DNA of 64,000 nt from a virus. Positions 15 through 49,280 of this stretch are shown one piece after another (the stretch's first letter is position 1; every line of letters begins with the position of its first letter). Under the pieces are notes generated by a model that searched no databases, was not told the DNA's origin, and saw only the letters and a program-made list of their open reading frames with translations. The translations under genes and the position numbers were made by a program. The stretch spans positions 64,001-128,000 of IMG/VR virus record IMGVR_UViG_3300032272_000002; one strand, 5' to 3'.

Positions 15-200
15 ATGTTCGACGAGACCCGCAACAAAGTGGAGGCATTCCACCTTGCGGTGCCGCAAGGCACACGCAAGGACCAGGCTATGTGGATTAC
101 GGGATGCGTGGAGCGTGAGCTTCAAGGGCTCGTCTTCGCAAAACTAGACAACAAAGATATCACGGAGAGTCTATGGCGAGTAGTAATCAATACTCTCTAG
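15..200 (+). CDS. hypothetical protein (may extend 5' beyond the window)
   Basis: ORF at the window edge overlapping the next gene; no recognisable motif. Confidence 0.5.
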   Translation: MFDETRNKVEAFHLAVPQGTRKDQAMWITGCVERELQGLVFAKLDNKDITESLWRVVINTL

Positions 201-541
201 AGGACATTCCGAACTTTAGTGTCACCAGGCTCATTGAGGATGGCGTCCGCAAGGAGGGGTTTCCTGGATCTCTACATTATAAGGTAGAAATCAAGCCAGA
301 TCCCGACCACCCTTGGGTTCAAGACTGGCCTGAGGATCAAGTCTTTGGCTGTACGTATAGCGTAGATGAGTTTACACTCTTTCAATCAGATGATCCCAAA
401 AGGACCAAGCGTGACCTCATGTATCTTCACGTCAAAAATGCGTGGGAAGAGTGGTGGCATTCTCATTGGAGACATAACGGCAAGAGGCTCTCAATCCTTG
501 AGCGTCCTGAATATGCATTTGTCCTTGGAGGGGCACTGTAA
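173..541 (+). CDS. hypothetical protein with C-terminal FxLxGAL tag
   Basis: GGAG SD upstream; ends EYAFVLGGAL*. Confidence 0.8.
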   Translation: MASSNQYSLEDIPNFSVTRLIEDGVRKEGFPGSLHYKVEIKPDPDHPWVQDWPEDQVFGCTYSVDEFTLFQSDDPKRTKRDLMYLHVKNAWEEWWHSHWRHNGKRLSILERPEYAFVLGGAL

Positions 542-542
542 A

Positions 543-941
543 ATGAAAAGAGAAAAGGTATATATCTCCGGTCCAGTATCCGGCATGCCCGAACTGAACC
601 ATCCCGCGTTCCGTCGAGTTGAGAAGATGTTATTTGCTGCCGACTGTGAGGTAGAAAATCCCATCAACAATCAGCGTCCTCTATTCTTTGACTTAAAAGA
701 AGATGCGATGGAGTTGTGGCAATATCAAATGAGAAAGGCCGTCTCTCAGTTGACCTTGTGTGATAGCATCGTCATGCTAAATGGCTGGGAGAAATCCAAG
801 GGGGCGACCATCGAGCTATGGCTGGCCCACATGCTGGGGTTAGTATTGTATAATGAAAACCTTCAGCCGCTAAATATTGCCCCAGAAGAAATTTCCCTGC
901 CAGACTGGCAGGCCGTAAAACGACACCTCGCCAGCATATAA
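543..941 (+). CDS. DUF4406 / nucleoside 2-deoxyribosyltransferase-like protein
   Basis: KVYISGPVSG...NP...CDSIVMLNGWEKSKGATIE pattern; start moved to ATG 543, 1 nt after the upstream stop. Confidence 0.8.
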   Translation: MKREKVYISGPVSGMPELNHPAFRRVEKMLFAADCEVENPINNQRPLFFDLKEDAMELWQYQMRKAVSQLTLCDSIVMLNGWEKSKGATIELWLAHMLGLVLYNENLQPLNIAPEEISLPDWQAVKRHLASI

Positions 942-999
942 GTAGTCTGGTGAAACTGCTAGCATTTTTGAGAATCCATAAATGAACAGAAGAAATGGC

Positions 1000-1028
1000 T
1001 TGACAAACGAAGAATACTTTGATAAGGT
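1000..1028 (+). promoter_or_regulatory. sigma70-type promoter, probably giving a leaderless mRNA
   Basis: TTGACA-N17-TAAGGT with ATG at 1036, 7 nt after the -10 box. Confidence 0.6.
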
Positions 1029-1035
1029 TCAGGGT

Positions 1036-1689
1036 ATGACAGAAGAAAGTTCGACCACTACGAGACCCCCCGGTCTTATTTTCATCTCGCTTTCTGGAAA
1101 GAAGCAGGTGGGAAAGGACACGGCAACCGACATCGCAACACGTCTTTTGCGAGACGTGGGCAAGACGGTAAAGGTGACTGCGTTTGCTGAACCCCTCAAG
1201 CGAATGTGTATTGATGTGCTGGGGCTTGAAGAAGCCTTAGTATATGGCTCGAATGATGATAAGGATACTCTTACACATATTGTGTGGGATACAATGCCTT
1301 TGAATATTAGAGTGAAATACTCTAAGGTTACTCGCGGCCCTCGAAGTGGTGCGATGACCGTGCGAGAAGTTTTACAGGTCGTGGGGACTGACATTTTCCG
1401 CGAGATGTTTTGGGATAACGTGTGGGCCGAGGCCCCGTTCCGCAAGGACTACGCCGATGTTGACGTGGTAATCTTAACAGATTGCCGCTTTCCCAACGAA
1501 AAGGACTGTACAGATGGTAGTGGTGGCGTCACTATTAGATTGGAGAGGGCTACAGGCTTCACCGACAACCATAAAAGTGAGACCGCTCTTGATGGATACA
1601 CTTTTGAATACTTCTATGAGAACAACGGCTCACTAGAAGACCTAGAAATCTTTATTAGAGAAACCCTGGAGGAAATTGAACTACTATGA
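1036..1689 (+). CDS. deoxynucleoside monophosphate kinase (T4 gp1-like)
   Basis: P-loop SGKKQVGKDT, AFAEPLK, REVLQVVGTDIFR, DCRFPNE, HKSE. Confidence 0.9.
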   Translation: MTEESSTTTRPPGLIFISLSGKKQVGKDTATDIATRLLRDVGKTVKVTAFAEPLKRMCIDVLGLEEALVYGSNDDKDTLTHIVWDTMPLNIRVKYSKVTRGPRSGAMTVREVLQVVGTDIFREMFWDNVWAEAPFRKDYADVDVVILTDCRFPNEKDCTDGSGGVTIRLERATGFTDNHKSETALDGYTFEYFYENNGSLEDLEIFIRETLEEIELL

Positions 1690-1853
1690 ATGAACAACAA
1701 CCGAACGTCTATGTCTCGGGAGACGAGGCTCGACTACTAATGCAGCTATTAACTGCTACCCCCTTGATGCAGCTTTACACGAAGCTGAACGTCATCAACA
1801 CCGTGCAGCCCGCACAACAACAACAGCCTACGGAGGCACCAAAAAATGAATAA
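1686..1853 (+). CDS. small hypothetical protein (55 aa, not in the ORF track)
   Basis: ATGA overlap with the kinase stop; MNEQQPNVYVSGDEARLL...PKNE*; fills the gap exactly. Confidence 0.65.
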   Translation: MNEQQPNVYVSGDEARLLMQLLTATPLMQLYTKLNVINTVQPAQQQQPTEAPKNE

Positions 1854-2304
1854 CAGAGATCTTGCCTTCACGCATCGTCCGCTGACTGGTGTCAGTGTTG
1901 GTGCTTACAACGCGAACGGTGTTCTTTATGTCGCTGCCGCATTTACGAACGATGGCACTAGCCGCAATGGCAACTACCACGAGGAGCACAACGATGTCTT
2001 TTCGCGTGCTATCTCCCGTCGTATTATCGCGGGCCGCATTACCTTCTCGCAGAAGATCGCTACCCGCTTTGTCTTCGAAGTAGAGACTGACATGACTGGC
2101 CCAGACTTTATGCGTGCCTTCCGTCAGTCATTCAAGCCTGAGCTTGATGAGACAGATAATGTATTGCATGACGCATTCGTTCAAGGCGGCACCGAGTATC
2201 GTGCTCGCAAGACCGTCAACGATATTTGGGACGTGATTGGAGATCTTGCGAACATCGTCGTTAACGCCCCCGTTGCAGTTGGGACTGAAACCACTGGTAA
2301 CTAA
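1846..2304 (+). CDS. hypothetical protein
   Basis: GGAGG SD; tightly packed ORF. Confidence 0.75.
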   Translation: MNNRDLAFTHRPLTGVSVGAYNANGVLYVAAAFTNDGTSRNGNYHEEHNDVFSRAISRRIIAGRITFSQKIATRFVFEVETDMTGPDFMRAFRQSFKPELDETDNVLHDAFVQGGTEYRARKTVNDIWDVIGDLANIVVNAPVAVGTETTGN

Positions 2305-2906
2305 TGAGAGTATTAGTTTTTGACACCGAGACGGGTGGCGTTGATTCCACTAAGCATTCTCTGTTGACTCTTGGTGCCCTGGCGGGAGACCTTGATACTG
2401 GCGAAGTATTCGAGCAGTTTGAGGTCTTCCATCGTCTTCCGGACGAAGCCGACTATAACATCTCTGATGGAGCCTTCGGGGTCCACGGCATCACTGCCGA
2501 AGATTGTATGGACAAGGGTGTTAAGACAACTGAAATTCAGGAACGCTTTGCGGACCTGTATATGAACCATAATTGCGTCCTGCTTGCAGGGCACAATGTT
2601 GAGTTCGATGTCAGGTTTATGTGCGATCAGATTTATAAGTTCAGTGTAGCTGAGTTTGATAACACGTTTACCTATCGCAAACTAGATAGCATGCCGATTG
2701 TACGCTTGTTCGCAGGCGTAGAGAACATGCAGCAAGGTGCGACTCTAAAACAAACCGTGAAGTCACTGGGAATTGATATGAGTGATGTTAAAGGTGGCGG
2801 CTATCACGCCGCTCTCTATGATGTCATTGCCACGTTCCGAGTGTTATGTAAATTCCGACAAGTTTTATCGTCACCCGAAGTGGTGACACAACTAACAGGA
2901 GGCTAA
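2304..2906 (+). CDS. DEDDh 3'-5' exonuclease (Pol III epsilon-like)
   Basis: VFDTETGG (ExoI), GHNVEFD (ExoII), HAALYD (ExoIII). Confidence 0.9.
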   Translation: MRVLVFDTETGGVDSTKHSLLTLGALAGDLDTGEVFEQFEVFHRLPDEADYNISDGAFGVHGITAEDCMDKGVKTTEIQERFADLYMNHNCVLLAGHNVEFDVRFMCDQIYKFSVAEFDNTFTYRKLDSMPIVRLFAGVENMQQGATLKQTVKSLGIDMSDVKGGGYHAALYDVIATFRVLCKFRQVLSSPEVVTQLTGG

Positions 2907-2907
2907 T

Positions 2908-3075
2908 ATGCGTGCCCGTGATAAGCACCGTCGCTTTCTACGAAAGAATGGTTGGATCGCCGTGGAAGCTCTGAAAGATAATGGAGCTTTCCAGTGGAAG
3001 TGGATTCATACACGCTATAAGCGTGCGTATTCCCGCCAAGCTGCCGTAGAAAGAACACAACGATGGTCTAAATGA
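2908..3075 (+). CDS. small basic hypothetical protein (55 aa, not in the ORF track)
   Basis: AGGAGG SD; MRARDKHRRFLRKNGW...RWSK*; ATGA overlap with the next gene. Confidence 0.65.
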   Translation: MRARDKHRRFLRKNGWIAVEALKDNGAFQWKWIHTRYKRAYSRQAAVERTQRWSK

Positions 3076-3557
3076 ATAAAAGATTTGATACAAGAACCGA
3101 AGAAGAGTTTAAAGCAGAAATTGCCCATAGAACCCTTCTTGAACGTGAGCTATTCCTAGAGTGGCTCAATCTACAAGAGAAAGAGACGGGTGTGCTGCCT
3201 AAGTTTACTGACACAGGGTGTGGTAATCATGGTGAGTTCATCGAGGACAAAAAGGTTTCAACTGCTGCTGACTTTGACGTGGAGGGTATTGGCCTGGTAG
3301 AAGTAAAATTCGCCAAGCCAATGCTCAAGCGTGACTTTCACCTCAAGGTTGGACAAACTAAATCATACATTAAGCAGGGTGCCATGATCCTTATGGTGAT
3401 TGGAGCCGACGAAGACGTACCAAAATTTACATTGATTAACGTTGAAGCTCTCGAAGAGATTGTTGAAACGTGTCCCATTGTAAAGTGGGTAGGCTTCGGC
3501 TTCAAGCCCTCGTATAGAATTGAAATTGGGAAATTCGTATGGCGAGACCTAAAGTAA
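3072..3557 (+). CDS. putative PD-(D/E)xK nuclease
   Basis: ADFDVEGIGLVEVKF resembles a PD...ExK core. Confidence 0.55.
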   Translation: MNKRFDTRTEEEFKAEIAHRTLLERELFLEWLNLQEKETGVLPKFTDTGCGNHGEFIEDKKVSTAADFDVEGIGLVEVKFAKPMLKRDFHLKVGQTKSYIKQGAMILMVIGADEDVPKFTLINVEALEEIVETCPIVKWVGFGFKPSYRIEIGKFVWRDLK

Positions 3558-3805
3558 CCGGCGAACCTCACGACGTGCTGGGCCCATTCGAGGTGCATCA
3601 TAATCCAGAGCAAAACGCATGGATCATTAAGTATAATGAAGCGTCCGATAAATACCTCAATATGTTTGGAAATTTAGCCAACCTGCCTGATCTCTTTGCG
3701 ACTCGTGCAAGTGCTATGAATCTCATCTATGATTTAGTCGCAGGTAATAGGCTTCTAAATACTACTCCCGTAGATGACTCATTCAAACTAAGCGGTGCCC
3801 TATGA
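3539..3805 (+). CDS. hypothetical protein with C-terminal FxLxGAL tag
   Basis: ends VDDSFKLSGAL*. Confidence 0.75.
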   Translation: MARPKVTGEPHDVLGPFEVHHNPEQNAWIIKYNEASDKYLNMFGNLANLPDLFATRASAMNLIYDLVAGNRLLNTTPVDDSFKLSGAL

Positions 3806-4380
3806 AATTTGATATCATTATCCCTACTATCAATCGCATGTCTTTGAATGCAGCAGTAGAGTCTGTGTATGCCCAACGCTATACGGACTGGAGATTGTTT
3901 GTGGTAGGCGATGGTGTGATGCCTGATCTTGAAGGCTACGATAAGGATAGGGTTTGTGTCATGTCTATTGACCAACGTACTGCTGACAGCGGTGCGAGTC
4001 AACGCAATATGGGCATCCGAATTGGTGACAGCCCCTGGATCGCCTACCTAGATGATGATGACGTGTGGTATCCCGACCACCTGAGTACTATCGTTGAGCT
4101 ACACGAGGAGTTTCGTGACGCTGACATGTTTAAAACAGCAGCTCAAGAAATGGTTATGTCTCGGAAAAGTCCTCGACATAAGAAAGAAAAAATGAAGTTG
4201 CGGTGTGTAAATGAGGACGACCCCCTTACTATTACAATAGCACATTCAAGAGACCTGTTCTATAAGACTTCGAAGTGGCAAGCAAAAGATAACCACGACC
4301 ACATCTTATGGAATGAAATGCTGGCAGCAGGCGGCCAGCCAGCTAAAAGCAAAAGTGTAACGGCACTATATCTCAGATGA
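3802..4380 (+). CDS. glycosyltransferase family 2
   Basis: IIIPT..R, SVYAQ, VVGDG, RNMGI, IAYLDDDD. Confidence 0.9.
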   Translation: MKFDIIIPTINRMSLNAAVESVYAQRYTDWRLFVVGDGVMPDLEGYDKDRVCVMSIDQRTADSGASQRNMGIRIGDSPWIAYLDDDDVWYPDHLSTIVELHEEFRDADMFKTAAQEMVMSRKSPRHKKEKMKLRCVNEDDPLTITIAHSRDLFYKTSKWQAKDNHDHILWNEMLAAGGQPAKSKSVTALYLR

Positions 4381-5567
4381 AAATTATCAACCTCTTTAGC
4401 GAGAACTTCAAGCGGATTAAAGCCGTAGAAATTAAGCCAGACGGCAACATCGTTTATATCTCTGGTATGAATGGTGAAGGCAAGACCTCTATCCTCGACG
4501 CCATCTGGGACACTCTGGAGCACAGAGCTACCAAGAAGCGGATCAAGGAGCCTCTCCGGGTCGGAGCGGAGAAAGGTCGCAACGAAATTGACCTTGGTCA
4601 GTACATTATCACTAGGACTTATGGCCCTGAGGGCAAGACTACTCTCAAGGTAGAGACGCCTAGCGGCAGCATCATCAAGTCGCCCCAGCGTTTGCTTGAT
4701 ACTCTCGTCGGAGACTTGAGCTTCGACCCATGGGATTTCATCCGACAAACAGATCAGAAGCAACGCGAAGCGTTGGCTGACCTTCTATATAATCTAACAG
4801 ACGGCAAGTTCGACGTGAGCGAATTCGAACGCCGCCATAATAAAGCTTACGAAGAGAGGACTGCCGAGAACCGAGACAAGAAACGTCTCGACGGTATGAT
4901 CTCTACTCTCCTGCCTCCGACAGATAAAGATCCTACTACAGAAACATCTGTTGCGGAGCTATCTGACAAACTGGACTTGGCTATTGAGAAATCTAAGAAT
5001 GAAATAGAGATTGATACGCTGAGACAACGGGTCGTCGAGTTGGAGGCTCGCAACCAAGAGATTGGTGCCTTGGACCACGAAGACATTCGTCGGCAGCTAG
5101 AAAATATTGAGTCGCAGAATAAGAGGGCCCGCGAAGTTACGCTGTACCACAACACTAAGAAAGACTTGGCCGAAGTGGAGGCGAGGGTGGACGCACTGAA
5201 CGATGAGATGGAATTGGTGAAAATTGAGAAAGCGGAGGCCCTAGAGTCCGCTTCGCTCCCCGTAAAGGGTTTAACTGTCACCGAGGACGGAATTATGCTG
5301 GCGAACTCAACAAATGATTTGGTACCTTTTTGTCAGGCGTCTACCGCACAGCAATTGAGGGTAGCACTCGCCATTGCCATGACTGCCAACCCAGACTTAC
5401 GAGTCATTCGTATCGCGGACGGCTCTCTTTTGGACGATAACAGCCTGCAAATTATCGAAGAAATGGCAGGAGAACAAGACTTTCAGATTTGGATTGAATA
5501 TGCATCGCGAAACGACCAGGATAGGGTGGGCGTCTACATCGAAGACGGATCCATCGTAGAGAATTAG
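4377..5567 (+). CDS. SMC/Rad50(SbcC)-like coiled-coil ATPase
   Basis: ENFKRI, Walker A GMNGEGKT, central coiled coil, C-terminal ASTAQ and IRIADGSLLD. Confidence 0.85.
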   Translation: MKIINLFSENFKRIKAVEIKPDGNIVYISGMNGEGKTSILDAIWDTLEHRATKKRIKEPLRVGAEKGRNEIDLGQYIITRTYGPEGKTTLKVETPSGSIIKSPQRLLDTLVGDLSFDPWDFIRQTDQKQREALADLLYNLTDGKFDVSEFERRHNKAYEERTAENRDKKRLDGMISTLLPPTDKDPTTETSVAELSDKLDLAIEKSKNEIEIDTLRQRVVELEARNQEIGALDHEDIRRQLENIESQNKRAREVTLYHNTKKDLAEVEARVDALNDEMELVKIEKAEALESASLPVKGLTVTEDGIMLANSTNDLVPFCQASTAQQLRVALAIAMTANPDLRVIRIADGSLLDDNSLQIIEEMAGEQDFQIWIEYASRNDQDRVGVYIEDGSIVEN

Positions 5568-5574
5568 TGTATTC
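5564..5574 (+). promoter_or_regulatory. conserved motif TTAGTGTATTC (candidate phage-sigma promoter)
   Basis: the same motif lies upstream of genes at 18152, 21160 and (variant) 63670. Confidence 0.55.
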
Positions 5575-5604
5575 GTTAGTGCGGCATTGCCGTAGGAGAC
5601 TATT

Positions 5605-6009
5605 ATGGCTATTAAACTTAACTGGAACGTCCTGTCTGATGTCAAATCCGACCTCGAAGATACCTGGAAACTGAAGCCAGAGACCAAGGTAACGTTCGTC
5701 CTTCTAATGAAGGACGGCTCCCATCACAAGAAGACTATTAAGTTTTCTGAATTTCTAAAGTTCTTTTGGTTTATTTATGACAGCACTAATTTTCACGTCA
5801 AGGGCCTAGTAGTAACAGATACTACAGGCAAGATCCTTTATCGCCACCGACAAACGACTGGCGAACACGAAGAAATCCCGAACGGTGGCAACGTACACAT
5901 CTTTGATCGTTGGAACAATATGACTGACGGTCAAAAAGATGCCCACCTGAACATCCTACTATCTCAAATTTATGACTACACAGAATCCTCTCGAAACTCT
6001 AACGGTTGA
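5605..6009 (+). CDS. hypothetical protein
   Basis: AGGAG SD; ORF. Confidence 0.75.
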   Translation: MAIKLNWNVLSDVKSDLEDTWKLKPETKVTFVLLMKDGSHHKKTIKFSEFLKFFWFIYDSTNFHVKGLVVTDTTGKILYRHRQTTGEHEEIPNGGNVHIFDRWNNMTDGQKDAHLNILLSQIYDYTESSRNSNG

Positions 6010-6508
6010 CGAATGGGACGCCCTAATTATCAGCATCGTTAAGAGATACTTTTCGATTGCTCGTAGAAGCTCTGGCATCGACATTGATGATTTGAAGCAG
6101 GAAGCATGGCACGCATTGATGCGAGCCTGCAAGAATCATGATCCCGAGAAAGCCGCTAAGTCTGGCGTGAAGTTTAGTACGTATGCCTATGCGTATATCG
6201 ACGGCCAGCTTCGTAGGTATGTCTCCAACAGCTATAAAAATCCTGCCAGCGTAGACATCGACAATGTGACTATTGAAGATGAAGACTATGATCTGGAAGG
6301 AGATTTTGTCAAGGACGAATTGGCTGCCAAGATCTTTGAGCTGGCCGATGGGGCGAAACACTCTGAGCTATTGGTGGAGCACTTTGTCAAGGGTAAAACC
6401 TATCGTCAAATTGCATCTGAGCTTGGGGTCTCTCACAATCTCATTCACTTACGTATTCACAGCGTGCTGAAAAAAGTACAAGAGGATCTGTATGATGATA
6501 ACTATTAA
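5972..6508 (+). CDS. sigma-70 family RNA polymerase sigma factor
   Basis: region 2 DDLKQEA...DPEK..VKFSTYAY; region 4 HTH KTYRQIASELGVS. Confidence 0.9.
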   Translation: MTTQNPLETLTVDEWDALIISIVKRYFSIARRSSGIDIDDLKQEAWHALMRACKNHDPEKAAKSGVKFSTYAYAYIDGQLRRYVSNSYKNPASVDIDNVTIEDEDYDLEGDFVKDELAAKIFELADGAKHSELLVEHFVKGKTYRQIASELGVSHNLIHLRIHSVLKKVQEDLYDDNY

Positions 6509-6698
6509 GATTATCTCGTGTAAACTGTGCGGTGGCCAGTACTACGGCGGCGAACAAGACGTGAAGCTGAAAGCTGGCAACGAACGCAACGCACCAACTG
6601 AGGTATATTTTACCACACTAAAGGTATCCAAGTGTGCCACCTGTCAAACACACGCAGACCGCACTAAGGCGGCTCGCAAAAAGAGACTCCATGATTGA
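6492..6698 (+). CDS. small zinc-ribbon protein
   Basis: CKLC...CATC; basic C-terminus. Confidence 0.65.
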   Translation: MMITIKIISCKLCGGQYYGGEQDVKLKAGNERNAPTEVYFTTLKVSKCATCQTHADRTKAARKKRLHD

Positions 6699-7626
6699 GG
6701 AATACACACACATTGGTCACATGAGACCAGACACAAAATATAACAACGTGTTCCTGGTGCAAAACTCTGCGGTCAAGACAACACGTAAAAGTAGAGAGCC
6801 CTATCTCTCCGTTACCCTGGCCGATGTCACTGGTCGCATTGAGGGTGCTATCTGGAATTGTTCTAATACAGATGTTGTTAAGCCGGGGAGCTATGTGTCT
6901 CTTGAAATTATTACTAAGACATACAAGGACACCCTGCAATTCAACGCCAAAGGTCGTACAGTACAACCCTTCAACGGAACTCCCCAGAATGCAGAGGACT
7001 ATGTGCGTGGACCTGGCGAGGCTGTGCTCGACTACTATGCCGACGAGCTGCGTCAGCATGTTGATAGTATCGACGATCCCGAGTACCGCGACATGCTTCA
7101 CGAACAGGTGGACATCATTGATACACTGAGGAATGCGTCCTTCGGGCAGACTGGCCCGCTTGCTCATCCGGGCGGCCTCTTGATCCACACCGTCCACGTA
7201 ATTCGATTGGCTCGTGCCTCTGTTGAGAAGTGTGGCGATATCGATGGCCTAAAAGTTAACAACTCCCTGGTCATTCTGGGAGGACTGCTTCGCAACATCG
7301 GCTGGGCAACCACAATGACGCTAGAGGGTAACTTCTTTCGTCCCCGCGATGCATTCTTTATGACTGGTGTTTACAAGGCGTCAGCCCGATATGTGGATCA
7401 TCTTATGATGGCGGTCGAAACGGACAAGGGTATTGCATTAAATGAAAGTAAGAAACAATCACTCTCTAATATGTGTGGCCCCATTGAGGACATCCGTACT
7501 CTTGAGGGCAAAGTGGTGGCTTGGGCGGGCGATATGGCTGGCATCATGCACCTTGGCGGCTTTGCCATGAACCTCAAGCAAGATGGTAGCTGGAAGGGTG
7601 ACTTCTTCGTGGGGCACCTATCATGA
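6691..7626 (+). CDS. YhaM/Cbf1-like OB-fold + HD-domain protein (HD motif degenerate)
   Basis: PYLSVTLADVTGRIEGAIW OB fold; AHPGGLLIHT; LLRNIG where LLHDIG is expected. Confidence 0.8.
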   Translation: MIEEYTHIGHMRPDTKYNNVFLVQNSAVKTTRKSREPYLSVTLADVTGRIEGAIWNCSNTDVVKPGSYVSLEIITKTYKDTLQFNAKGRTVQPFNGTPQNAEDYVRGPGEAVLDYYADELRQHVDSIDDPEYRDMLHEQVDIIDTLRNASFGQTGPLAHPGGLLIHTVHVIRLARASVEKCGDIDGLKVNNSLVILGGLLRNIGWATTMTLEGNFFRPRDAFFMTGVYKASARYVDHLMMAVETDKGIALNESKKQSLSNMCGPIEDIRTLEGKVVAWAGDMAGIMHLGGFAMNLKQDGSWKGDFFVGHLS

Positions 7627-7865
7627 ATCCCGATGCAGAACTAATGTATCGCGAACTACACACGGCCTATAACCATGGGCTCATCTCTAAAGAGCAAGCT
7701 GCCTCCATGTGGAAGATGTATAATAAGCCCTTGGAACAGGTAACATATAACTTTCCAGTGAGCAAACCTATCGTGGGCTACTTCAACTTTAATACTGGCG
7801 AATCTATGAGCCAAGAAGAATTCGAACGAGCTGAAAATGAATTTGTTTTACGAGGAGCACTATGA
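7623..7865 (+). CDS. hypothetical protein with C-terminal FxLxGAL tag
   Basis: ends AENEFVLRGAL*; ATGA overlaps at both ends. Confidence 0.75.
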   Translation: MNPDAELMYRELHTAYNHGLISKEQAASMWKMYNKPLEQVTYNFPVSKPIVGYFNFNTGESMSQEEFERAENEFVLRGAL

Positions 7866-8626
7866 GCAGACTAGAACGAGCAAGAATCGCTGGTAAAGTT
7901 AATCGCGATGCTATTGAACATGGCTTCAGCCTAGCTAAGCCTGGCGTAACTCTACGCGAGCTAGACACTGAGCTTGGCAGCTTCATTAAATTTCACGAAG
8001 GTTGCACGCCAGCATTCCTCGGCTATAAAGGCTTCCCGCGTAACGCCTGTATCTCAGTGAATTACGTAGCCGTACACGGTGTTGCAGACGAACACGTCAT
8101 CAAGGAGGGCGACCTCCTAACGATTGATATTGGCACTATCTATGAAGGGATGTATGCCGACGCGGCGAGTACGCGAGTAATCGGTAGTGAGCTAGAGCAC
8201 GAACAAGAGTGGCATCTGTCTGAGTCTGTACAGATCGTCCTGCAAAAACAGTTAGAGGTAGTACGCGACGGCACCTCTCTTCTCGATATTGCACAGGCTG
8301 GACAAGCCGCTGCGGAAGATCTCTGTCTGCACATGGTAGAGGATCTCGGCGGCCACTATATCGGAGAGCAATTACATATGGATCCGTTCATTCCTAACTG
8401 CATCGATTATCGACGCGGCAAGCTGAGTGCGGACCTTCAAAAGAAAAAATATTCCCAACATCTTTTGCGTACTGGGGACATTATTTGTATTGAACCTGTT
8501 ATTACTTACGGAAGTACGGACCTCACTGTTGGTGCAGATGATTGGACGTGCAGTACGGCAGCTCTCTCGGCTCACGCCGAGCATATGATTTTAGTTACTG
8601 AAACCGGATACGAGATTTTATCATGA
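7862..8626 (+). CDS. map: methionine aminopeptidase type I
   Basis: GYKGFP..CISVN...HG, DIG...D, GHYIG..LH, IEP, HAEH. Confidence 0.93.
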   Translation: MSRLERARIAGKVNRDAIEHGFSLAKPGVTLRELDTELGSFIKFHEGCTPAFLGYKGFPRNACISVNYVAVHGVADEHVIKEGDLLTIDIGTIYEGMYADAASTRVIGSELEHEQEWHLSESVQIVLQKQLEVVRDGTSLLDIAQAGQAAAEDLCLHMVEDLGGHYIGEQLHMDPFIPNCIDYRRGKLSADLQKKKYSQHLLRTGDIICIEPVITYGSTDLTVGADDWTCSTAALSAHAEHMILVTETGYEILS

Positions 8627-9186
8627 ATACTATCATTACACACCTAGACAACGACCGTTTCCCGATTCTAGAGGCAGAATCACAGCCAGTTAGTGTACCT
8701 ATTAGTGCCCTCGACCTCGAACATATTGAGAGGATGGACGTTACTTTGAGAGATTTGGAAGACGGTGCGGCAGGACTTGCCGCAGTACAAATTGGATACC
8801 CCAAACGCATCTTCTTGCTTCGTAAGGATGGGGAAAACCGTGTCTTCATCAATCCCACTGTTATTGCACGAAGCAAGGAAACCCGGAAGCGTCCCGAGGC
8901 GTGCCTGTCTCTGCCTGGACTTGTTGTACAGACCACTCGTCCCAAATCTGTGACTCTAAAGTACTTCGATCTAGAAGGTGCTGAGCACACCGAAACCTTT
9001 GCTGGTTTCTGGGCACAGGCTGTTGCTCACGAGATGGATCACCTTAATGGTACCCTTCTAACTCGTCACTTGGAAGCTCAGTATGCCAAGACTGACACTC
9101 GTACCAAGTTCGGTATGAAGATGAATGCCCATCGCACCAAAGCGATTGCCAAGCGTCGTGCAAAGAACAAGCGGTCAAAGAAATGA
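8623..9186 (+). CDS. def: peptide deformylase
   Basis: GLAAVQIG, EACLS, HEMDHLNG; basic C-terminal extension. Confidence 0.95.
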   Translation: MNTIITHLDNDRFPILEAESQPVSVPISALDLEHIERMDVTLRDLEDGAAGLAAVQIGYPKRIFLLRKDGENRVFINPTVIARSKETRKRPEACLSLPGLVVQTTRPKSVTLKYFDLEGAEHTETFAGFWAQAVAHEMDHLNGTLLTRHLEAQYAKTDTRTKFGMKMNAHRTKAIAKRRAKNKRSKK

Positions 9187-9470
9187 CCAATAGCAAGTCC
9201 AAGATCGTGGAGGATCTAAACCTCCATAAATTCCAGCAACAGATTCTTGGTGAATTCAAAGAGTTCACCATGCCTATTGTTAGATCAGGGTTTCCAAGTA
9301 CTCCGTTGAACGAGTTGTATAAAAAACAGATCATGACGGCGAAACCGGCCTCGATCAAATGGAACTTCGTGTACAGCGAAGAGGATAAAAAATGGAATAG
9401 CGTAGATGAACTTCCTCGTGAACAGGTAGAATCTGAGAGCGATGAATTCGTATTGACCGGAGCCTTATAA
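9183..9470 (+). CDS. hypothetical protein with C-terminal FxLxGAL tag
   Basis: ends ESESDEFVLTGAL*. Confidence 0.75.
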   Translation: MTNSKSKIVEDLNLHKFQQQILGEFKEFTMPIVRSGFPSTPLNELYKKQIMTAKPASIKWNFVYSEEDKKWNSVDELPREQVESESDEFVLTGAL

Positions 9471-9500
9471 AAAGTACCTTACCCCCAAGGGGAATTGTGA

Positions 9501-10163
9501 ATGAAACAAGTGTTTAAGCCCGCCAGCCCACGTAAAGGACAGAAGGAATATTATGAATCAATGCACGACAACGAGATCACGTTCTGCGTAGGCAGAGCTG
9601 GTACCGGAAAAACATATCTAGCACTCAGTGCTGCGATTGAAATGCTCTACAAGCAGAGTTCAGGCATTCGACGTATCGTAATTATTCGTCCTTACATTCC
9701 CACCAATATCGGTGAGAAACTGGGGGCTCTGCCCGGCACGCTAAGCGAGAAGGTAGGTCCGTATGTCGAGGGTGTAAAAGATAACCTTCGCGAGATGATT
9801 ACGGAAGAATCTGAGATCATTAATCTAGTAAATAATAAGTTTGAGTTCGCAGTTCTAGGTACATGCCGAGGCAGATCATTTAACAACGCTTTTATCATCG
9901 TTGAAGAGGCTCAGAACGTCCCGCTAGACGGTGGGGCCATGAAAATGCTGCTGACACGTATTGGAAAAAAGTCTAGGATGGTAATTGCTGGCGACCTGGA
10001 CCAGTGTGATATCGCCAGTGATCGATCTGCCCTAACTCATGCCATAAATGTACTTGACGGAATGAAAGATATTGGCATCATTGAGATGAACGATCTTAAT
10101 ATCATTCAGCGTAACCCGTTGATTAAAGAAATTTTAAAGAGGTACGAAGAAGATGGGCAGTAA
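9501..10163 (+). CDS. phoH: PhoH family ATPase
   Basis: GRAGTGKT, LGALPG, RGRSF, EEAQN, LTRIG, GDLDQ. Confidence 0.93.
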   Translation: MKQVFKPASPRKGQKEYYESMHDNEITFCVGRAGTGKTYLALSAAIEMLYKQSSGIRRIVIIRPYIPTNIGEKLGALPGTLSEKVGPYVEGVKDNLREMITEESEIINLVNNKFEFAVLGTCRGRSFNNAFIIVEEAQNVPLDGGAMKMLLTRIGKKSRMVIAGDLDQCDIASDRSALTHAINVLDGMKDIGIIEMNDLNIIQRNPLIKEILKRYEEDGQ

Positions 10164-10689
10164 AACAGTAGTATTTTGTGACCTGTGCAAACAAGAGGCT
10201 GAAGAAGACAATCTATATTCGCTTGTCTTTAAGAAGCCAGGAAAGAAAACAGGGAATAGATACGAACTTTGCTCTGGCTGTGCTGGTAAACTACAGGTGC
10301 AGCTAGTAGGTGAAGGGGAACTTTCTTCCGGATGGGGATTCGGTTCGGGGCCACCGCAAGGACCGGCCACCGACCAGTCTCCACCGGAAGAGACTGCTGC
10401 TGAACGTCGTAAGCGTCTCTCTAAGCCGCTGCCAGAGCCCGATGCCGATGATGCCTTTGTGGCAGAGAAGCAGAAGGAGGCGGCAGCTATCAAAGAGCGT
10501 GCTAGTGGAGGCCCGAAGGTCGAGAGCGGTAAAGCTACCGATGGTAAGTGCCTACATTATAACAAAACATCTGCCGTGATGGGCACGGTAGGTGGTGAAC
10601 CGGGGTTCGTTCGCAAGTGTAAGGACTGTCGCGAAACCTTACCCGTACATACTGCGGAAGAACGTCATTCCATTTCAAGTGGAGAATAA
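10153..10689 (+). CDS. hypothetical zinc-finger protein
   Basis: CDLC...CSGC and C-terminal CLH...CKDC. Confidence 0.7.
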   Translation: MGSKTVVFCDLCKQEAEEDNLYSLVFKKPGKKTGNRYELCSGCAGKLQVQLVGEGELSSGWGFGSGPPQGPATDQSPPEETAAERRKRLSKPLPEPDADDAFVAEKQKEAAAIKERASGGPKVESGKATDGKCLHYNKTSAVMGTVGGEPGFVRKCKDCRETLPVHTAEERHSISSGE

Positions 10690-10693
10690 TCTC

Positions 10694-11224
10694 ATGAGAA
10701 AGCATTTAGGTGTACTTTTGGCCCTGGGTCTTGTGATCCTGCCTGTGACTGGAGTCGCTCTAAGCGGCTGTGTGTCTACTGGTGGTGAGCAAGGTCTAGA
10801 AACTCTCGAAACCATGACCGAAGCCGACTACCAGCGTCTCAAGCTGTATAGTACGCTCGGCGTCAAGATTGCCGCGAACCGTCTGGTTCAAGAGGGCACT
10901 GTGTCTGCTGCTGACCTAACGTTGGCCGCCGACCTTCTTGATTCTATTAAGTCAACCCCCGCTATGGGTGGTGCTGAACTTCTTATCGAAGATCTACTGG
11001 CCGACAGCGGCCTAACCAGCACCGAAGTCGAAGCTCTTCTTCAAATCGTTGTATTTGAGCTACAGGCCCGTGGAGTCTTCGACAACCTTGGCATCGGCGG
11101 TCTCGTGGAACTATCTCCGCGTACCGAAGACTTCATTGATTCCATGATTGACGCCGTGCGTAGTGCCGGAACCGTCAGCCAGGAAGAACTGCAAGAAGCC
11201 CACGCCATGGGCATCAGTGAATGA
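10694..11224 (+). CDS. putative lipoprotein
   Basis: GGAG SD; MRKH + hydrophobic stretch + lipobox LSG|C. Confidence 0.75.
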   Translation: MRKHLGVLLALGLVILPVTGVALSGCVSTGGEQGLETLETMTEADYQRLKLYSTLGVKIAANRLVQEGTVSAADLTLAADLLDSIKSTPAMGGAELLIEDLLADSGLTSTEVEALLQIVVFELQARGVFDNLGIGGLVELSPRTEDFIDSMIDAVRSAGTVSQEELQEAHAMGISE

Positions 11225-11953: not shown

Positions 11954-11973
11954 GAGCTATCGCTCTATAAAAT

Positions 11974-12007
11974 AAGGGGCGTGACCATTAGGTCACTCCC
12001 CTTTTTT
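11974..12007. terminator. bidirectional intrinsic terminator between convergent blocks
   Basis: AAGGGGCGTGACC-ATTA-GGTCACTCCCCTT followed by a T run; A-rich on the other side. Confidence 0.85.
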
Positions 12008-38956: not shown

Positions 38957-39830
38957 GAGGAAATAATGTTTGGAGGATCGTCTCGCAACGACTCTCATAA
39001 GTATGATGACCTAAAATCAGATTTTGTCCAAGTGCTCTTTGACTTTCTTCTAATGTTTTAATATCTTCACTACCTTGAATGATATCATCTATCGTGCGAT
39101 AAGGAATATGATTACAGACATGCATCAGGCCCGCCTGCATATTAATCTCTAAGTCTCTCGCCTCGGTCATCACAATAGCACCAGCAGCCTGAGCCTCCCA
39201 GTAACGCATGTTCAATAGGCCAGCACCCTGATCGGGATTTTGATTAATCACAACCTTAGCCTTAGCTAACGCATCGATATACTGTTCGCGGAATAAACCA
39301 CTAATAAGTTCTAATCTAATTCCTTTCTTAGAAAGAGATTTGGAAAGGGATACGCGATCTGGGCGAGAGGTTCCTGGTAGAACAAAGTCATACTCTTTTT
39401 CCACGCCGTGACGTACGTGAAGCTCGGCATCTACAGCATAAGGTAGATAGGTGCTATTGGGAAACTTGTCTAGGTCCAGTGGGTTGGCGATGAATTGGTG
39501 CTCGAACTGGAAGAAGTTGTTAAAGCCCGTTAAATGATCCTGGTAATAAGATGTATCAAATAACCAGCACGCAGTTTTGCGAGCCTTCACCACCTTGAAG
39601 CCGCCGTATGCCGGATCGGCATCGTTGCACTCCATGTAGAGAGCCAGGTCATACTCGTGCTCACGCACAGAAGCCGTGGGATCTACCTGTTCCATCCAGG
39701 TATCCGTCTGGTAGTAATTACCATAAGGAGTCACGTCGTGGCCCAAGTTGCGAAACGCTTTGACTACGAGGTCCCCCGTGGCCCACTCGGGGCTTTGGGG
39801 GATACCTCTATATGCTACTAGTATTTTCAT
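38946..39830 (-). CDS. CgeB-like GT-B glycosyltransferase
   Basis: LPYAVD, AKVVIN, LNMRYWEA, HTYESR. Confidence 0.8.
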   Translation of the reverse strand: MKILVAYRGIPQSPEWATGDLVVKAFRNLGHDVTPYGNYYQTDTWMEQVDPTASVREHEYDLALYMECNDADPAYGGFKVVKARKTACWLFDTSYYQDHLTGFNNFFQFEHQFIANPLDLDKFPNSTYLPYAVDAELHVRHGVEKEYDFVLPGTSRPDRVSLSKSLSKKGIRLELISGLFREQYIDALAKAKVVINQNPDQGAGLLNMRYWEAQAAGAIVMTEARDLEINMQAGLMHVCNHIPYRTIDDIIQGSEDIKTLEESQRALGQNLILGHHTYESRCETILQTLFPHEA

Positions 39831-44171: not shown

Positions 44172-45246
44172 TTACTACCTCTCGATAAATGCTCTCTAAT
44201 TTTTTAACGCAAGCAGAGACGTGGTATTGCTCTTTGGCCTTACGCACACCCTCTACCCCCATACTGACACGGAGAGCTGGGTCGTCAATGAGTTTCTTGA
44301 GTGCTTCTGCGTATTCGCTTACGTCGTTCTCGACAATAAAACCTGTCTTGTCATGGTCTACTAATTGAGTCTGTGACTGAAAAACTCCCATGCCGGGAAA
44401 GCTCGGCGTAGCCCAATGTGTCACGACTGGTTTAGCATGAATCATGGCCTCAGCAATGTTAACCCCAAACGTCTCTCCGTCCGCTCGTGCGTGTGCATAG
44501 ATATCTACCGTATTGTAGAATTGACTAAGTACTGACGCAGTAGTGGTCGGGGAAATAGTGTGAAAAGGGATATCATACTTAGCAAGGTCATCGATCATGT
44601 TGGACGGCGGGGCCACCACTAAGAAATGAATCGGGTACCCCTGCATTCTGAGTAGATGAGCAGCACGCACGCTGACCGAATTATAGATACCATTGTCGGG
44701 GCGGCCACAACGACCAAGAACAATGGCGTCATCAGGAATGTCTAGTCCAAGCATCACTTGAGATGCGGGATCCTCCACGGGGTTATTCACAAAGTCAAAG
44801 CGTCTGGCGGGCATGTTATGTCCGACACCGTTTAATTGAGATAGAGAATAATTCATTAGCCACTCGCTCATATATAGCGTGCGGTCAATCCTGGGGTTAG
44901 GGTCGATGTGCCCGAACACATTTGTCTCTACAAAGTGCGGGACCTGAACGTGGAGACCGGGCTCGGGAAACTGCTCGAAGCCGCTGCGGTAGACATGCAG
45001 AATATCAAATCCATTCTGGTAAATAACGTCCTGTAGATCGGCACTGCTCTGTAGGGGGAACAGGCTGCCGCGACACACTTTGGACGCCATAACGAACTCG
45101 TCGAGCCGCGTCATGTCTGCGTCGGCCTTATACGCTACGCCAACCTCGAACTGGGTAGAGGAAGAGTGCTCAAAGAATAGCTGAGCAGTCTTAGTCGTAC
45201 CGCCAAGATCTAGGTTGTCTAGGTAGTGTAGTACCTTGATTTTCAT
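44164..45246 (-). CDS. glycosyltransferase family 4 (paralog of the neighbouring gene)
   Basis: LGGT, HVYRSG, VETNVFG, GETFGVNIAEAM. Confidence 0.88.
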   Translation of the reverse strand: MKIKVLHYLDNLDLGGTTKTAQLFFEHSSSTQFEVGVAYKADADMTRLDEFVMASKVCRGSLFPLQSSADLQDVIYQNGFDILHVYRSGFEQFPEPGLHVQVPHFVETNVFGHIDPNPRIDRTLYMSEWLMNYSLSQLNGVGHNMPARRFDFVNNPVEDPASQVMLGLDIPDDAIVLGRCGRPDNGIYNSVSVRAAHLLRMQGYPIHFLVVAPPSNMIDDLAKYDIPFHTISPTTTASVLSQFYNTVDIYAHARADGETFGVNIAEAMIHAKPVVTHWATPSFPGMGVFQSQTQLVDHDKTGFIVENDVSEYAEALKKLIDDPALRVSMGVEGVRKAKEQYHVSACVKKLESIYREVVSG

Positions 45247-46076
45247 TTCCATTTCTTTCCTGTGTGCATATGTGCTACCCACTCATCCTTAGATGGCCTC
45301 TCATCAAACTCTTTGAACTCTTTAGCATGCTTAAGATGATTCAGGAAATTGTGAGGATAAAACTCTGAGATGGACGAGTAGGTCTCCCAGTTGTTGGCCC
45401 ACTTATTGCTGTTCTCGATGGAATCAGGACGCTGCACATAGATCGTTAAGATCTCCTGCACTGATAAGCCCTCGTACCCCTGGTTCATAAAGTAAAGCCA
45501 GAGCCAGTAGTCAAATGCGGAACGATACTCGGCTGCACGCACATGCATCAGCTCCCAGTTGAGTGAGTCGCGGAACTCTTGGTCGTTACGCCACACCACC
45601 TGTGGGCCGCCCCAGCACTCACGAGTCATTACCTCGTAATCCCAGGCGGGCTTGATGCCACCGGCCACGGTCTTACCGGACTCGTCCACAACGTGGATGC
45701 CACCGTAGGCAAAACCCAGCTTACCGAGAAGCTCAACATTCCGCTGCTCGAACTGTTCGCTCATAACCTCTGTGAAGCGAGGATAGTGTAAGTCGTCTGT
45801 ATTGCTATTACATACTAAGGGTGCGGACGCCGCCTTCCACGCACGCAGCCAAGATTCACCATACCACTCACGTTCGTTGTGATATATGTACTTGACACGC
45901 TCGTCGGCTGCTTCCCACTTACGGGCGATCATGTCGTCCGTGCCTGGTGAGTTAGGGTTAACGATTATGATCTCAAAATTGGGATCAGTCTGACCCTCTA
46001 GTAAATTGGTCATATGACGATCAAGGAAATGACCGGAATCATATGTAGAAACTAGGTAAGAAATTTTAGGGTTCAT
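45243..46076 (-). CDS. glycosyltransferase family 2
   Basis: ISYLVSTY, FEIIIV, NSNTDD, DY.LWL. Confidence 0.8.
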   Translation of the reverse strand: MNPKISYLVSTYDSGHFLDRHMTNLLEGQTDPNFEIIIVNPNSPGTDDMIARKWEAADERVKYIYHNEREWYGESWLRAWKAASAPLVCNSNTDDLHYPRFTEVMSEQFEQRNVELLGKLGFAYGGIHVVDESGKTVAGGIKPAWDYEVMTRECWGGPQVVWRNDQEFRDSLNWELMHVRAAEYRSAFDYWLWLYFMNQGYEGLSVQEILTIYVQRPDSIENSNKWANNWETYSSISEFYPHNFLNHLKHAKEFKEFDERPSKDEWVAHMHTGKKWK

Positions 46077-47092
46077 ACTTCTACGCCGTTATGATAAGTA
46101 TTCATAAACGGCTGTGACTGCTTCGTCATGCAGAGATAGATATTGCCATAGTCCTGCTCTGCTAGCACTTGCTTGTAGAACGGATCTTCTGACCATAGCT
46201 CCTCATTGGGATAGTGGGTTGACGGCACATTTGCAATCGGGTGACCACTCATGATTTCAGGATGCTCTCCATCAAAGAATAGCAGCGGCTCAGTCTTGGC
46301 GAACCAGTCCTTGATCTTCTGATCGAACTTGGCATTAGCCCCACCGTGAGCTGCTAGCTCTTTGGTGTAGTATTCCTGCTTACGCTTCATGACTTCATCC
46401 ATATTCATACGGGCATAGCCATAGTGGTAGATGAACATGGGGACACGCATCATGCCACGACGTGATTGATAGTGTGGCGAGAAGTAAGTACAGTGACCTG
46501 TCTCGTCGGTTACGACGGGGTGACTATTATACTTCATATTGCGACCACGCTTGAAGATGCGTTGATGCTGCGGCTGCCACTCAGGGCCAGGCACGGCAAC
46601 GTGCTTGAAGTCGCGATAGAAGTGCAGGAACGTCGGCACGAACTCGCAGATATGCGGGTGCAACTCAATAGCTTCCCTCAGCCTGCGAATATCAGCAGGC
46701 TGATAGAATTCGTCCGCATCATTGATGATTAGCCAGTCACCGGGGAATGACATATCAATGAACGTTTGCTTGATCTCTTCCAAGTTCTTCCAGGGCTTCT
46801 TGATCTGGAGAAAGACAACCTTCTTGTCGGGGTCGTGGTTCTCTTTGAAGTCCTTGATAATATCCACGGTCTTATCTGTCGAGTGGCCATCCTCTGTCGA
46901 GTTCGGTCGGTTCTCCACGGCACCCTCGATTACGATGATACGATCTACCTCGTCATAGATGGAGCGTAGCACAAGCGGGGCGAACTCCTCCTCGTTGTGC
47001 ATCTGAATACACTGGACAAGACGGGCGGGATTATTGACACGCTCAGCGATGGAGGCCATCTGCGGTACATAGATAGGCTGTTGTTGGTTCAT
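46073..47092 (-). CDS. glycosyltransferase family 2-like
   Basis: HNEE, STDKT, DADEF, HYGY. Confidence 0.8.
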   Translation of the reverse strand: MNQQQPIYVPQMASIAERVNNPARLVQCIQMHNEEEFAPLVLRSIYDEVDRIIVIEGAVENRPNSTEDGHSTDKTVDIIKDFKENHDPDKKVVFLQIKKPWKNLEEIKQTFIDMSFPGDWLIINDADEFYQPADIRRLREAIELHPHICEFVPTFLHFYRDFKHVAVPGPEWQPQHQRIFKRGRNMKYNSHPVVTDETGHCTYFSPHYQSRRGMMRVPMFIYHYGYARMNMDEVMKRKQEYYTKELAAHGGANAKFDQKIKDWFAKTEPLLFFDGEHPEIMSGHPIANVPSTHYPNEELWSEDPFYKQVLAEQDYGNIYLCMTKQSQPFMNTYHNGVEV

Positions 47093-47499
47093 AGTGCTCC
47101 TCCTAAATCGAAGCTATTTGTTACGGGTTCTGGCTCAGGAATTTCTGGCTTAATATATGTACTAAGGGTCTTAACATCATCGGGAACGGTGTCGGTATAA
47201 CACGTAATGTCAAGACTAATATCATGGTCTACCGAAATGAGAACAGGTTGCATCTGACCAATAACTTGTTGCGTAACGTGATTCATAGAACAATGAATAT
47301 CTAGCTTGGTGATCTGCATTCCATTGTTTGATAAGTACTCAATGATTCGATCCTTATCTAGCTCGGCGTTATCAAGACCGTGAGCTTGAATGTCTGAAGT
47401 CGGACATTGGTCTACTGCCATACTAACGCTCTCGCTAGTTATGGCATAACCAAGATTGTTTAGTAACACGTCAACAGTCTCCGGTAAAAGATTACTCAC
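47089..47499 (-). CDS. hypothetical protein with C-terminal FxLxGAL tag
   Basis: ends PEPVTNSFDLGGAL*. Confidence 0.75.
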   Translation of the reverse strand: MSNLLPETVDVLLNNLGYAITSESVSMAVDQCPTSDIQAHGLDNAELDKDRIIEYLSNNGMQITKLDIHCSMNHVTQQVIGQMQPVLISVDHDISLDITCYTDTVPDDVKTLSTYIKPEIPEPEPVTNSFDLGGAL

Positions 47500-47882
47500 A
47501 GTGCTCCACCGATTTCAAAGTCGTCATCCTCTTCTTCTACTTCGATAGAAGGCAGATCAATTCCGTGTCCGATTAACTTCCAGACACCGCCCTCAAACCG
47601 TTCAATCGTATTGGCTTCTTCATTGAATCGAAGAGCACCCTCGAATTCAAGACCATCAATCTGAATAATACCAGGAGTATTGATAGTGATACCAGTAGAT
47701 GCTGGAAAAACAAATGGCGGCTGATTCAAAGGGTCAGGCGGGGGCCACTGAAAGCTATTAGGATCACCGCCAGTATTGTCTACGTATCTCCACTCAGGAT
47801 TAACTCCCGTGCCGTCATGAAACGGCACGTCTTGCGGGTCTCCCGCTGAAAAACTCACGCTATTAGAATAGCTTACACTCAT
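47496..47882 (-). CDS. hypothetical protein with C-terminal FxIxGAL tag
   Basis: ends EEEDDDFEIGGAL*; contains GALRFN...E.FEGGVW, a short virion-fibre-like motif. Confidence 0.75.
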   Translation of the reverse strand: MSVSYSNSVSFSAGDPQDVPFHDGTGVNPEWRYVDNTGGDPNSFQWPPPDPLNQPPFVFPASTGITINTPGIIQIDGLEFEGALRFNEEANTIERFEGGVWKLIGHGIDLPSIEVEEEDDDFEIGGAL

Positions 47883-48001
47883 AATGCTCCCCTTAAAGTA
47901 AAGACTTCTTCTTCTTCTGGAAGTTCCTCCATCAAGTCTTCAAAGCAACACTTGTTAAGTAACTTAGAAAACTCTAGCATAGATTCAGACGCCTGCTCCA
48001 T
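47879..48001 (-). CDS. small hypothetical protein with C-terminal FxLxGAL tag
   Basis: ends PEEEEVFTLRGAL*; start at ATG 48001 (40 aa) or ATG 48097 (72 aa, long overlap). Confidence 0.65.
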   Translation of the reverse strand: MEQASESMLEFSKLLNKCCFEDLMEELPEEEEVFTLRGAL

Positions 48002-49280
48002 CGTCAAACCCAGTTTGCGTAGATTCTGGCTCAGCTCCAATATGTACTGGTGTGTCTGCTGCTGGCTGTTCTTGGGTGAAGATAATTGGTTCTCCATTAC
48101 TATACTGCTCCAAAATTTTCTCTAACTGAGGGGTAATCTTATCATGAGTATCCTCATAATGGAAAGATGCTACCGCCTTGCGGCCATTCTCCTGCCGTTG
48201 CAGGACAGCATTCCACTCCTCTTGTTCCTCTGCCGTCAGAGTATTCTGCATGGCTTTCCTGCGAAGCGTGTGGTATTTACGCATCAAGAAGGCCATCTGA
48301 ACGGGGGACGGTTCGAAGCACTGCTCAACGCCAGTGAACAAACCGGGGTCAGGATGATGCATGTCGAAGAAGAACGACTCAGAGCCACCATAGACCAAGG
48401 CGTGCTCGGGTCTCACAAAACCCTCAAGTCCGCTGCTCATATTCGAGATCAAAACGTTGCCGTGACCTAGTGCGTCGAAAGGAGGAATACCCCAGCCCTC
48501 AGCACGAGACGAGCAAACGTATGCATGGCCACGATTATGTAGTCCATGAATCTCATCATCCGTCATGATGTCAACAATCGGCAGAACAGGCGGCAGCTTA
48601 GGTGCGGGGATACGACAGCCCTGCTTAATCTGTGCGATATAATTCTTGATCGTTGCCATGTCCTGAGAACGATCTTGCATATTGATGTAAGTCTTAAGCA
48701 CAAGCAAGACATCATCAGGAGCATCAGCAAAGGCAGCAAAGTAAGCTTTCAATAAAGCGTCTACTCCCTTCTTCGCTGACAATTGACAGATAGAATAGAA
48801 AACAGTGCGGTCTCCAGCGTTCTCTAATTTGAAGGGCGGGTACTGCTTATCATACACTGCGAAATCGCAGGGCGGTGGAATCACTAGGATCGGCTTGGTG
48901 ACACCCGAACGCATTAGGGCTTCGGCGTTGTGGCGACAGGGCACAAGTAGGAAGTCAAACTCATTGGCCTTCTGTGCCCAGGTCATTTGTAGGCGATCAC
49001 TCTCAAAGAACGTATAAAGTCCATTACAAATACCCGGAATAGGTACAGCTTCGACATTACACGTAGTCATCTGGATTGCCATGTCAACATCTTGCAAATC
49101 CTTTTTTAGTAAAGTGTCCAGCCACGGTTCGGGTACGAATGCGGTGTCTGCCCTGTCGTACTTGATGGGGCGAGCAGTCAATTCTATAGACTTTGAGGCG
49201 TGGAGGGCTCTTAAAAAGTTGCGTGAAGCGTGTGCAAAGCCGCTAAAGTCCAATAAAGGACCCGTAAATAGTAATTTCAT
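47985..49280 (-). CDS. glycosyltransferase family 4
   Basis: SGFAHASR, KKGVDALL.AY, SRAEGWGIP. Confidence 0.88.
   Translation of the reverse strand: MKLLFTGPLLDFSGFAHASRNFLRALHASKSIELTARPIKYDRADTAFVPEPWLDTLLKKDLQDVDMAIQMTTCNVEAVPIPGICNGLYTFFESDRLQMTWAQKANEFDFLLVPCRHNAEALMRSGVTKPILVIPPPCDFAVYDKQYPPFKLENAGDRTVFYSICQLSAKKGVDALLKAYFAAFADAPDDVLLVLKTYINMQDRSQDMATIKNYIAQIKQGCRIPAPKLPPVLPIVDIMTDDEIHGLHNRGHAYVCSSRAEGWGIPPFDALGHGNVLISNMSSGLEGFVRPEHALVYGGSESFFFDMHHPDPGLFTGVEQCFEPSPVQMAFLMRKYHTLRRKAMQNTLTAEEQEEWNAVLQRQENGRKAVASFHYEDTHDKITPQLEKILEQYSNGEPIIFTQEQPAADTPVHIGAEPESTQTGFDDGAGV

Follow-up and report, generated by a model that had tools for sequence, protein, structure and literature searches.

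Small accessory proteins sharing a C-terminal tail

In a large phage represented by IMG/VR record IMGVR_UViG_3300032272_000002 (169,742 bases, hereafter G000), of which bases 64,001–128,000 form the 64,000-nucleotide window analyzed here, dozens of small proteins end in the same short tail, F-x-[LI]-x-G-A-L. The tail is strictly terminal, is confined to accessory genes, has been appended onto bodies whose homologues lack it and is under selection as a peptide, not as a DNA repeat. In sister lineages it is replaced by other labels while the homologous bodies persist, and it thus behaves like a lineage-specific address label. It is proposed, with a probability of roughly 0.3, that large phages run their own tag-and-reader system, in which a MoxR/peptidase-VWA pair would read a label carried by dozens of accessory proteins, and both the label and the specificity of the reader would be replaced wholesale between lineages. 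No description of these shared tails was found in the literature.

A sequence-only reading of the window had noted eight small open reading frames (ORFs) with this ending. All eight were found in the window, with the same coordinates and C-terminal ends:

173–541 (+), 122-amino acid accessory ORF with F-x-L-x-G-A-L at its end, no ATGA overlap
3539–3805 (+), 88-amino acid tagged ORF, ATGA overlapping the next gene
7623–7865 (+), 80-amino acid tagged ORF, ATGA overlapping the next gene
9183–9470 (+), 95-amino acid tagged ORF, no overlap with the next gene
36389–36664 (−), 91-amino acid tagged ORF
47089–47499 (−), 136-amino acid tagged ORF
47496–47882 (−), 128-amino acid tagged ORF
47879–48097 (−), 72-amino acid tagged ORF, counted from the first ATG (48097–47879)

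A homologue search with ORF 47089–47499 returned no match except itself, and ORF 47496–47882 had a weak feature likeness to tail-fibre trimer repeats (score 0.88), taken as a lead only.

The motif scan that the sequence-only reading had proposed for the genome and its relatives was carried out. In six frames of the genome, 33 ORF ends carried the tag or a close variant (67–286 amino acids by the longest start), with one further near-miss ORF, and seven related contigs from other samples (L389, L390, L439–L443; 35–46% GC; GCGC-free) yielded 31 more tags. The tagged ORFs of G000 span 4 to 112 kb of the genome, each on the local coding strand, are scattered across many transcription units, with many in variable and tRNA regions, and make up about 13% of genes. 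Among 253 called genes, chance would give 0.004 strict matches and 0.13 GAL ends; strict matches at internal positions numbered 0, against 0.7 expected. End-anchored similarity pairs numbered 424 in G000 versus 1–25 in 19 relatives. Accessory genes were tagged in 29 of 135 cases and core genes in 1 of 118 (p 5e-8).

The protein bodies, previously described as unrelated, showed no mutual BLAST similarity below E 0.09, although two of them were later joined by profile comparison. Searches of Pfam and PHROGs with the 33 proteins gave a weak ParB-like match for the 286-amino acid protein and two single Pfam matches near E 0.001; none of the 33 has a membrane segment, and all are soluble. The 13 residues preceding the tag are acidic at a fraction of 0.28, compared with 0.17 in other small genes. 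The invariance ascribed to the motif does not extend to the whole genome: F(−7) is present in 29 of 33 tags genome-wide, and the constancy of G(−3) and L(−1) comes partly from the selection pattern used. The exact consensus DNA pattern had two matches in viral contigs, and the one examined, from an RNA virus, was out of frame and due to chance.

Conservation and appended character of the tail

When the 64 tags from G000 and the seven contigs were pooled, with G and the terminal L as part of the selection pattern, F was found at −7 in 56, L, I or V at −5 in 64, A at −2 in 58 and G at −4 in 27. In eight orthologue pairs with bodies 27–68% identical, positions −7, −3 and −1 were identical in 8 of 8, versus 1–5 of 8 just upstream; the orthologue of the 36389 gene in L439, for example, is 38% identical and retains F-x-L-x-G-A-L. 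Close orthologues thus keep the tail, and keep it terminal, where its loss or displacement would have spoken against the sequence-only reading. Second-position differences in the tagged bodies were 0.17–0.43, against about 0.6 at four-fold sites; the bodies are under moderate purifying selection.

Distant homologues end without the tail, which identifies it as an appended module. For one body family 1528 homologues were found; among the best 150 of these, 11 end in the tail and 139 without it. P0123, an untagged homologue of another tagged body, ends where the linker of the tagged protein starts. At genome positions 47128–47355, in place behind rIIA, lie the first 60 residues of rIIB with the tag at their end. 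In L442, between 5359 and 16226, tails ending in G-H-L, G-Y-L, G-A-L-V and G-A-I-N stand beside strict tags and may represent tags being gained or lost.

Selection on the peptide

Codons shared between two tags matched the genome background (tag/background: F 0.53/0.50, E 0.47/0.50, L(−5) 0.17/0.17, G(−4) 0.31/0.31). Because synonymous codons are used at background frequency, selection acts on the peptide, as the earlier reading had argued from codon variation. The exceptions were mild biases at −2 and −1, expected from the double duty of these codons in Shine-Dalgarno (SD) and ATGA sequences. All TTN codons at −7 were TTY (29/29, p 2e-5), the DNA flanking the tags was 26–31% alike, and there was no nucleotide identity beyond what the peptide needs.

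Overlap with the next start was found for 21/33 tags versus 71/223 untagged genes, and SD-like cores for 20/33 versus 43/223; 12/33 tags have no ATGA, GTGA or stop-ATG overlap. The enrichment of F(−7) and L(−5), which the sequence-only reading had been prepared to see vanish under a model of SD and ATGA-overlap bias, persisted after that bias was modelled.

GGC is nearly absent at −3, owing to the genome-wide avoidance of GCGC (0 seen in G000, 469 expected). GCGC is essentially absent across the family (G000–G028, L389, L390, L439–L443) at 33–59% GC, which would amount to avoidance of an HhaI-type restriction site and would offer a clue to the host.

Replacement of the tail in sister lineages

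The family comparison covered 20 records including G000; several of the 17 other than G000, G001 and G002 are fragments. F-x-L-x-G-A-L occurred in none of 37 other IMG/VR records. The sister phage G001, with a terminase 73% identical, instead carries K-G-[RKQ]-R-W-I on 11 small ORFs, 2–11 residues before the stop (p about 1e-16), and the motif often includes the start codon of the next gene. In G002, W-A-x-x-L-L is present on 12 proteins, usually at the N terminus, and occurs 0–1 times per genome in all others.

These labels replace one another on homologous bodies. The syntenic G001 homologues of the 36389 gene (z 7.5) and the 47089 gene (z 9.2) have K-G-R-R-W-I instead, and the G002 gene in the slot of the 47089 gene has an N-terminal W-A-x-x-L-L. 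In the body family with 1528 homologues, the G001 member (E 4e-8) bears K-G-Q-R-W-I and the G002 member (E 1.5e-5) R-W-A-S-R-L-L; this family thus has all three tags, one per lineage, and none of the other 17 records contains it. This three-way swap on homologous bodies is the new contribution of the present case; neither it nor the MoxR/VWA candidate outside the window had been anticipated by the sequence-only reading.

De novo scans of the 17 other family records gave no real tag. Apparent tags were rejected as antisense frames of repeat genes (G016), unrelated matches (G007 and G018), a DNA cassette repeat (G020) and paralogues with SSB-like ends (G025). K-G-N-R-W-I in window gene 62357–62803 resembles the G001 tag; the stretch belongs to a conserved core, and the likeness was judged a coincidence.

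G016 has arrays of paralogous repeat genes at 104–13294 and 134215–151790, the antisense frames of which are also long and open. At G020 9566–10945 (L239), five small genes share a near-identical DNA cassette junction that gives L-E-K/N-E ends, and such a junction could be a DNA-level route by which shared tails start. Three small proteins at G025 90417–94504 (L283) end in L-P-F, two of them after an acidic stretch, like the SSB C terminus. G002 83289–84005 (L027) encodes a 238-amino acid VWA-like protein with an N-terminal W-A-x-x-L-L, and its G001 orthologue (E 2e-61) has no tag.

A MoxR/VWA pair as candidate reader

Under the proposed tag-and-reader system, the last seven residues would be a portable docking label, read post-translationally by one partner that would need F(−7), L/I(−5), a Gly turn and the terminal Leu. 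Many accessory proteins with fast turnover would carry the label as a graft, in most cases joined by an acidic linker. That one receptor serves many clients, as the sequence-only reading held, is still the best inference, and we infer a single reader with good probability. The guess made here assigns this role to a MoxR AAA+ ATPase encoded by the phage itself, together with a HExxH-metallopeptidase/VWA protein; this pair has the best-matching gene profile and is a tentative candidate.

The pair, a MoxR AAA+ ATPase next to a DUF2201 protein (HExxH peptidase plus VWA), is encoded at genome positions 31877–34899, 29 kb before the window. The ATPase belongs to the MoxR clade and has a fold like NorQ/CbbQ plus an extra helical C-terminal domain, largely missing from the shorter G027 protein; an Atlas search with this domain came back blank. 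In the partner protein the fold is of the VWA type, and both the HExxH and the MIDAS motif are intact. Among the 20 family records the pair occurs only in G000, G001, G002 and G027, so that all three tagged phages have it, and tags were found in 0 of 8 pair-lacking records at least 80% complete. Tagged genes adjoin the pair in L389, L390 and L442, and in G000 six of them lie at most 3 kb upstream of it. Such VWA partners end in Glu in 54 of 61 cases, most as [FYH]-x-L-x-[DEN]-[FY]-E, and these ends match the aromatic(−7)/Leu(−5) register of the tag (background 0.6%); wherever a tag-bearing phage has the pair, this C-terminal end of the partner is changed or lengthened. In NorD the last two residues are required for NorQ binding (PMC13036017), and capture of peptides by VWA has been proposed (PMC7159879).

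A number of observations weigh against this assignment. The pair occurs widely without tags: G027 has it and no detectable tag, the complete family member G035 has it without F-x-L-x-G-A-L, and no end-anchored tag was found within 10 kb of 78 other phage MoxR loci. Since G001 is the sister of G000, with G002 as the adjoining branch, tags and pair may co-occur through a single event. In G001, 22 kb separate the tag cluster and the pair. The prediction for the F/Y-x-L of the VWA protein is that it forms the last beta-strand, so the register match may be a structural coincidence. Nor is it easy to see how one and the same conserved machine could read a C-terminal strand of acidic character, a basic motif near the chain end and a helix at the N terminus. 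A complex prediction with two MoxR chains (residues 19–503) and a 30-residue tag alignment scored 0.00 and was used as evidence neither way.

Neighbours of the pair include a metallophosphoesterase and a membrane protein. The membrane protein gene, after the peptidase-VWA gene at G000 35257–35862 (L002:17257–17862), is limited to the F-x-L-x-G-A-L clade and G001 and is absent from G002. The full rIIA/rIIB pair, found in the region corresponding to G000 45221–47355, is present in ten MoxR-less genomes and absent from G001, G002 and G027. The rII and MoxR/VWA pairs are thus nearly mutually exclusive, with rIIB a tagged stump in G000.

Alternative readers of the tail

The tail might be read by a host protein, either as a degron for a protease or adaptor of the ClpX, Lon, Tsp or FtsH type or as a docking or decoy motif that would saturate a hub or defence protein of the host or ride on it, an explanation judged somewhat unlikely. 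Different hosts would explain different tags, and three unlike tags need no single reader. With its acidic linker, aromatic-x-Leu and small residues before a free hydrophobic terminus, the tail looks like known ligands of the ssrA and PDZ types; tags are spread across many transcription units, and a tag sits even on the truncated rIIB, as though little depended on the body. The selection on the bodies and the absence of tags from most family members speak against a host reader, as does the absence of any bacterial protein family ending in the consensus: 22 scattered matches were found in 185,579 genomes, about one of them in a real gene, and mimicry of a host C terminus was rejected on this result.

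Loading into the virion was the leading idea of the sequence-only reading, in the form of cargo docking on the capsid wall. This encapsulin-like form is weakened by the major capsid protein, the identity of which is 92% and 90% for phages whose tags are chemically unlike and 81–87% for phages that have no tag. Loading like that by the T4 capsid targeting sequence (CTS), read by a scaffold or core, with the proteins packaged and injected, is rather improbable. In T4, the internal proteins are small defence proteins of diverse kinds that have only the targeting sequence in common (PMC3012670). Many of the tagged genes here lie in variable and tRNA regions, their products have no membrane segments, and a 605-amino acid head-module protein, a scaffold candidate, is more variable (40–57%). 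The motif is on no head-module protein, however, and the T4 signal is N-terminal and group-wide, whereas here the majority of the relatives that share these head genes lack a signal.

A cis-acting signal in the nascent peptide or at the gene junction, which would tune termination and couple translation to that of the following gene, would account for the higher frequency of start overlaps and SD-like cores in tags and for the start codon often held by the G001 motif. It is quite improbable given the 12 tags without an overlapping start, some of which precede tRNAs or gaps, the orthologues that keep the tail without overlap, and the positions of the G001 and G002 motifs, the former 2–11 residues from the stop and the latter mostly N-terminal.

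Another suggestion had been that the phage ClpP (window 56267–56884) takes the tail as a degron or as a docking peptide. This protein belongs to the ClpP family, keeps the catalytic Ser and His positions and is unusually diverged between the sisters G000 and G001 (41%). An ATPase is normally needed for ClpP to recognize degrons, and its gene is core here and is found in relatives without tags too, which leaves the suggestion with very little probability. Some other reader is judged about as improbable. A DNA-level repeat of the kind that gives shared ends in G020, or chance, is refuted by the codon tests, together with the TTY codons at −7, the dissimilar flanks and the conservation of the tag across genomes of 35–48% GC, and is given almost no weight.

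Further features of the genome

A Pth2-like gene at G000 39252–39563 (L003:3252–3563) has a stop at codon 3 in 5 of 5 relatives (G000, G001, G002, G007 and L389), which is TAG in G000 and L389; a tRNA with a CUA anticodon lies nearby in G000. Because this stop is conserved, the gene probably uses programmed readthrough. In window gene 23330–23713 (−), an in-frame TGA at 23492–23494 aligns with a Cys codon of the intact G002 orthologue, and the frame runs on to a second CxxC; the TGA may be either selenocysteine or a recent nonsense change.

Implications

If the proposed system exists, a large fraction of the "dark" small genes of phages would be one regulated set, defined by label and not by fold, and seven residues and their partner would provide a handle on them. 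Clients would be assigned to the widespread phage MoxR/peptidase-VWA pair, and a short orthogonal tag-reader pair would be gained. Homologous bodies with three exchanged labels already amount to an experiment on specificity. A host reader would still leave the genome-wide replacement of a label across dispersed genes to be explained.

Comparison with known systems

The closest likeness is to the CTS of T-even phages (IPI and kin; PMC3012670), where, as here, diverse small accessory proteins share only a short terminal signal. The packaging role of the CTS has been shown, whereas the present tag is known from sequence, is found on 33 genes and is swapped between sisters with near-identical capsid proteins. 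The CTS is N-terminal and is cleaved. In the F-x-L-x-G-A-L clade the tag is strictly C-terminal, and is not an N-terminal signal removed by a head protease.

The phage encodes the same kind of MoxR AAA+/VWA pair as NorQ-NorD and CbbQ-CbbO (PMC13036017), and in NorQD a free hydrophobic C terminus docks on the ring; there the docking end is the VWA partner's own, and no tagged client set has been described. A similar pair of MoxR and metallopeptidase-vWA in group 2.2 jumbo phages has been proposed to aid virion assembly (PMC7824862). In the bacterial vWA-MoxR ternary systems, variable small proteins (FxSxx-COOH, RxD or acidic precursors, zincin) bear a conserved C-terminal peptide near a metallopeptidase and MoxR-vWA (PMC7159879). 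The FxSxx-COOH systems have one precursor per locus, with VMAP and effectors, whereas here dozens of dispersed phage genes carry another motif, with L/I at −5 and a G-A-L end in place of FxSxx, RxD or a poly-acidic terminus.

A short motif at a free C terminus after an acidic linker is also familiar from the ssrA tag, PDZ ligands, the SSB C terminus, HbYX and T4 clamp-binding tails; the tag sequence matches none of these as generally known. A ubiquitin-like tail would have Gly-Gly at, or exposable at, its C terminus, and Gly(−4) is present in only 27 of 64 tags. By analogy, the tail, although it falls outside the CTS, FxSxx-COOH and ubiquitin-like classes, appears to work most like a T4 CTS or a C-terminal docking tail.

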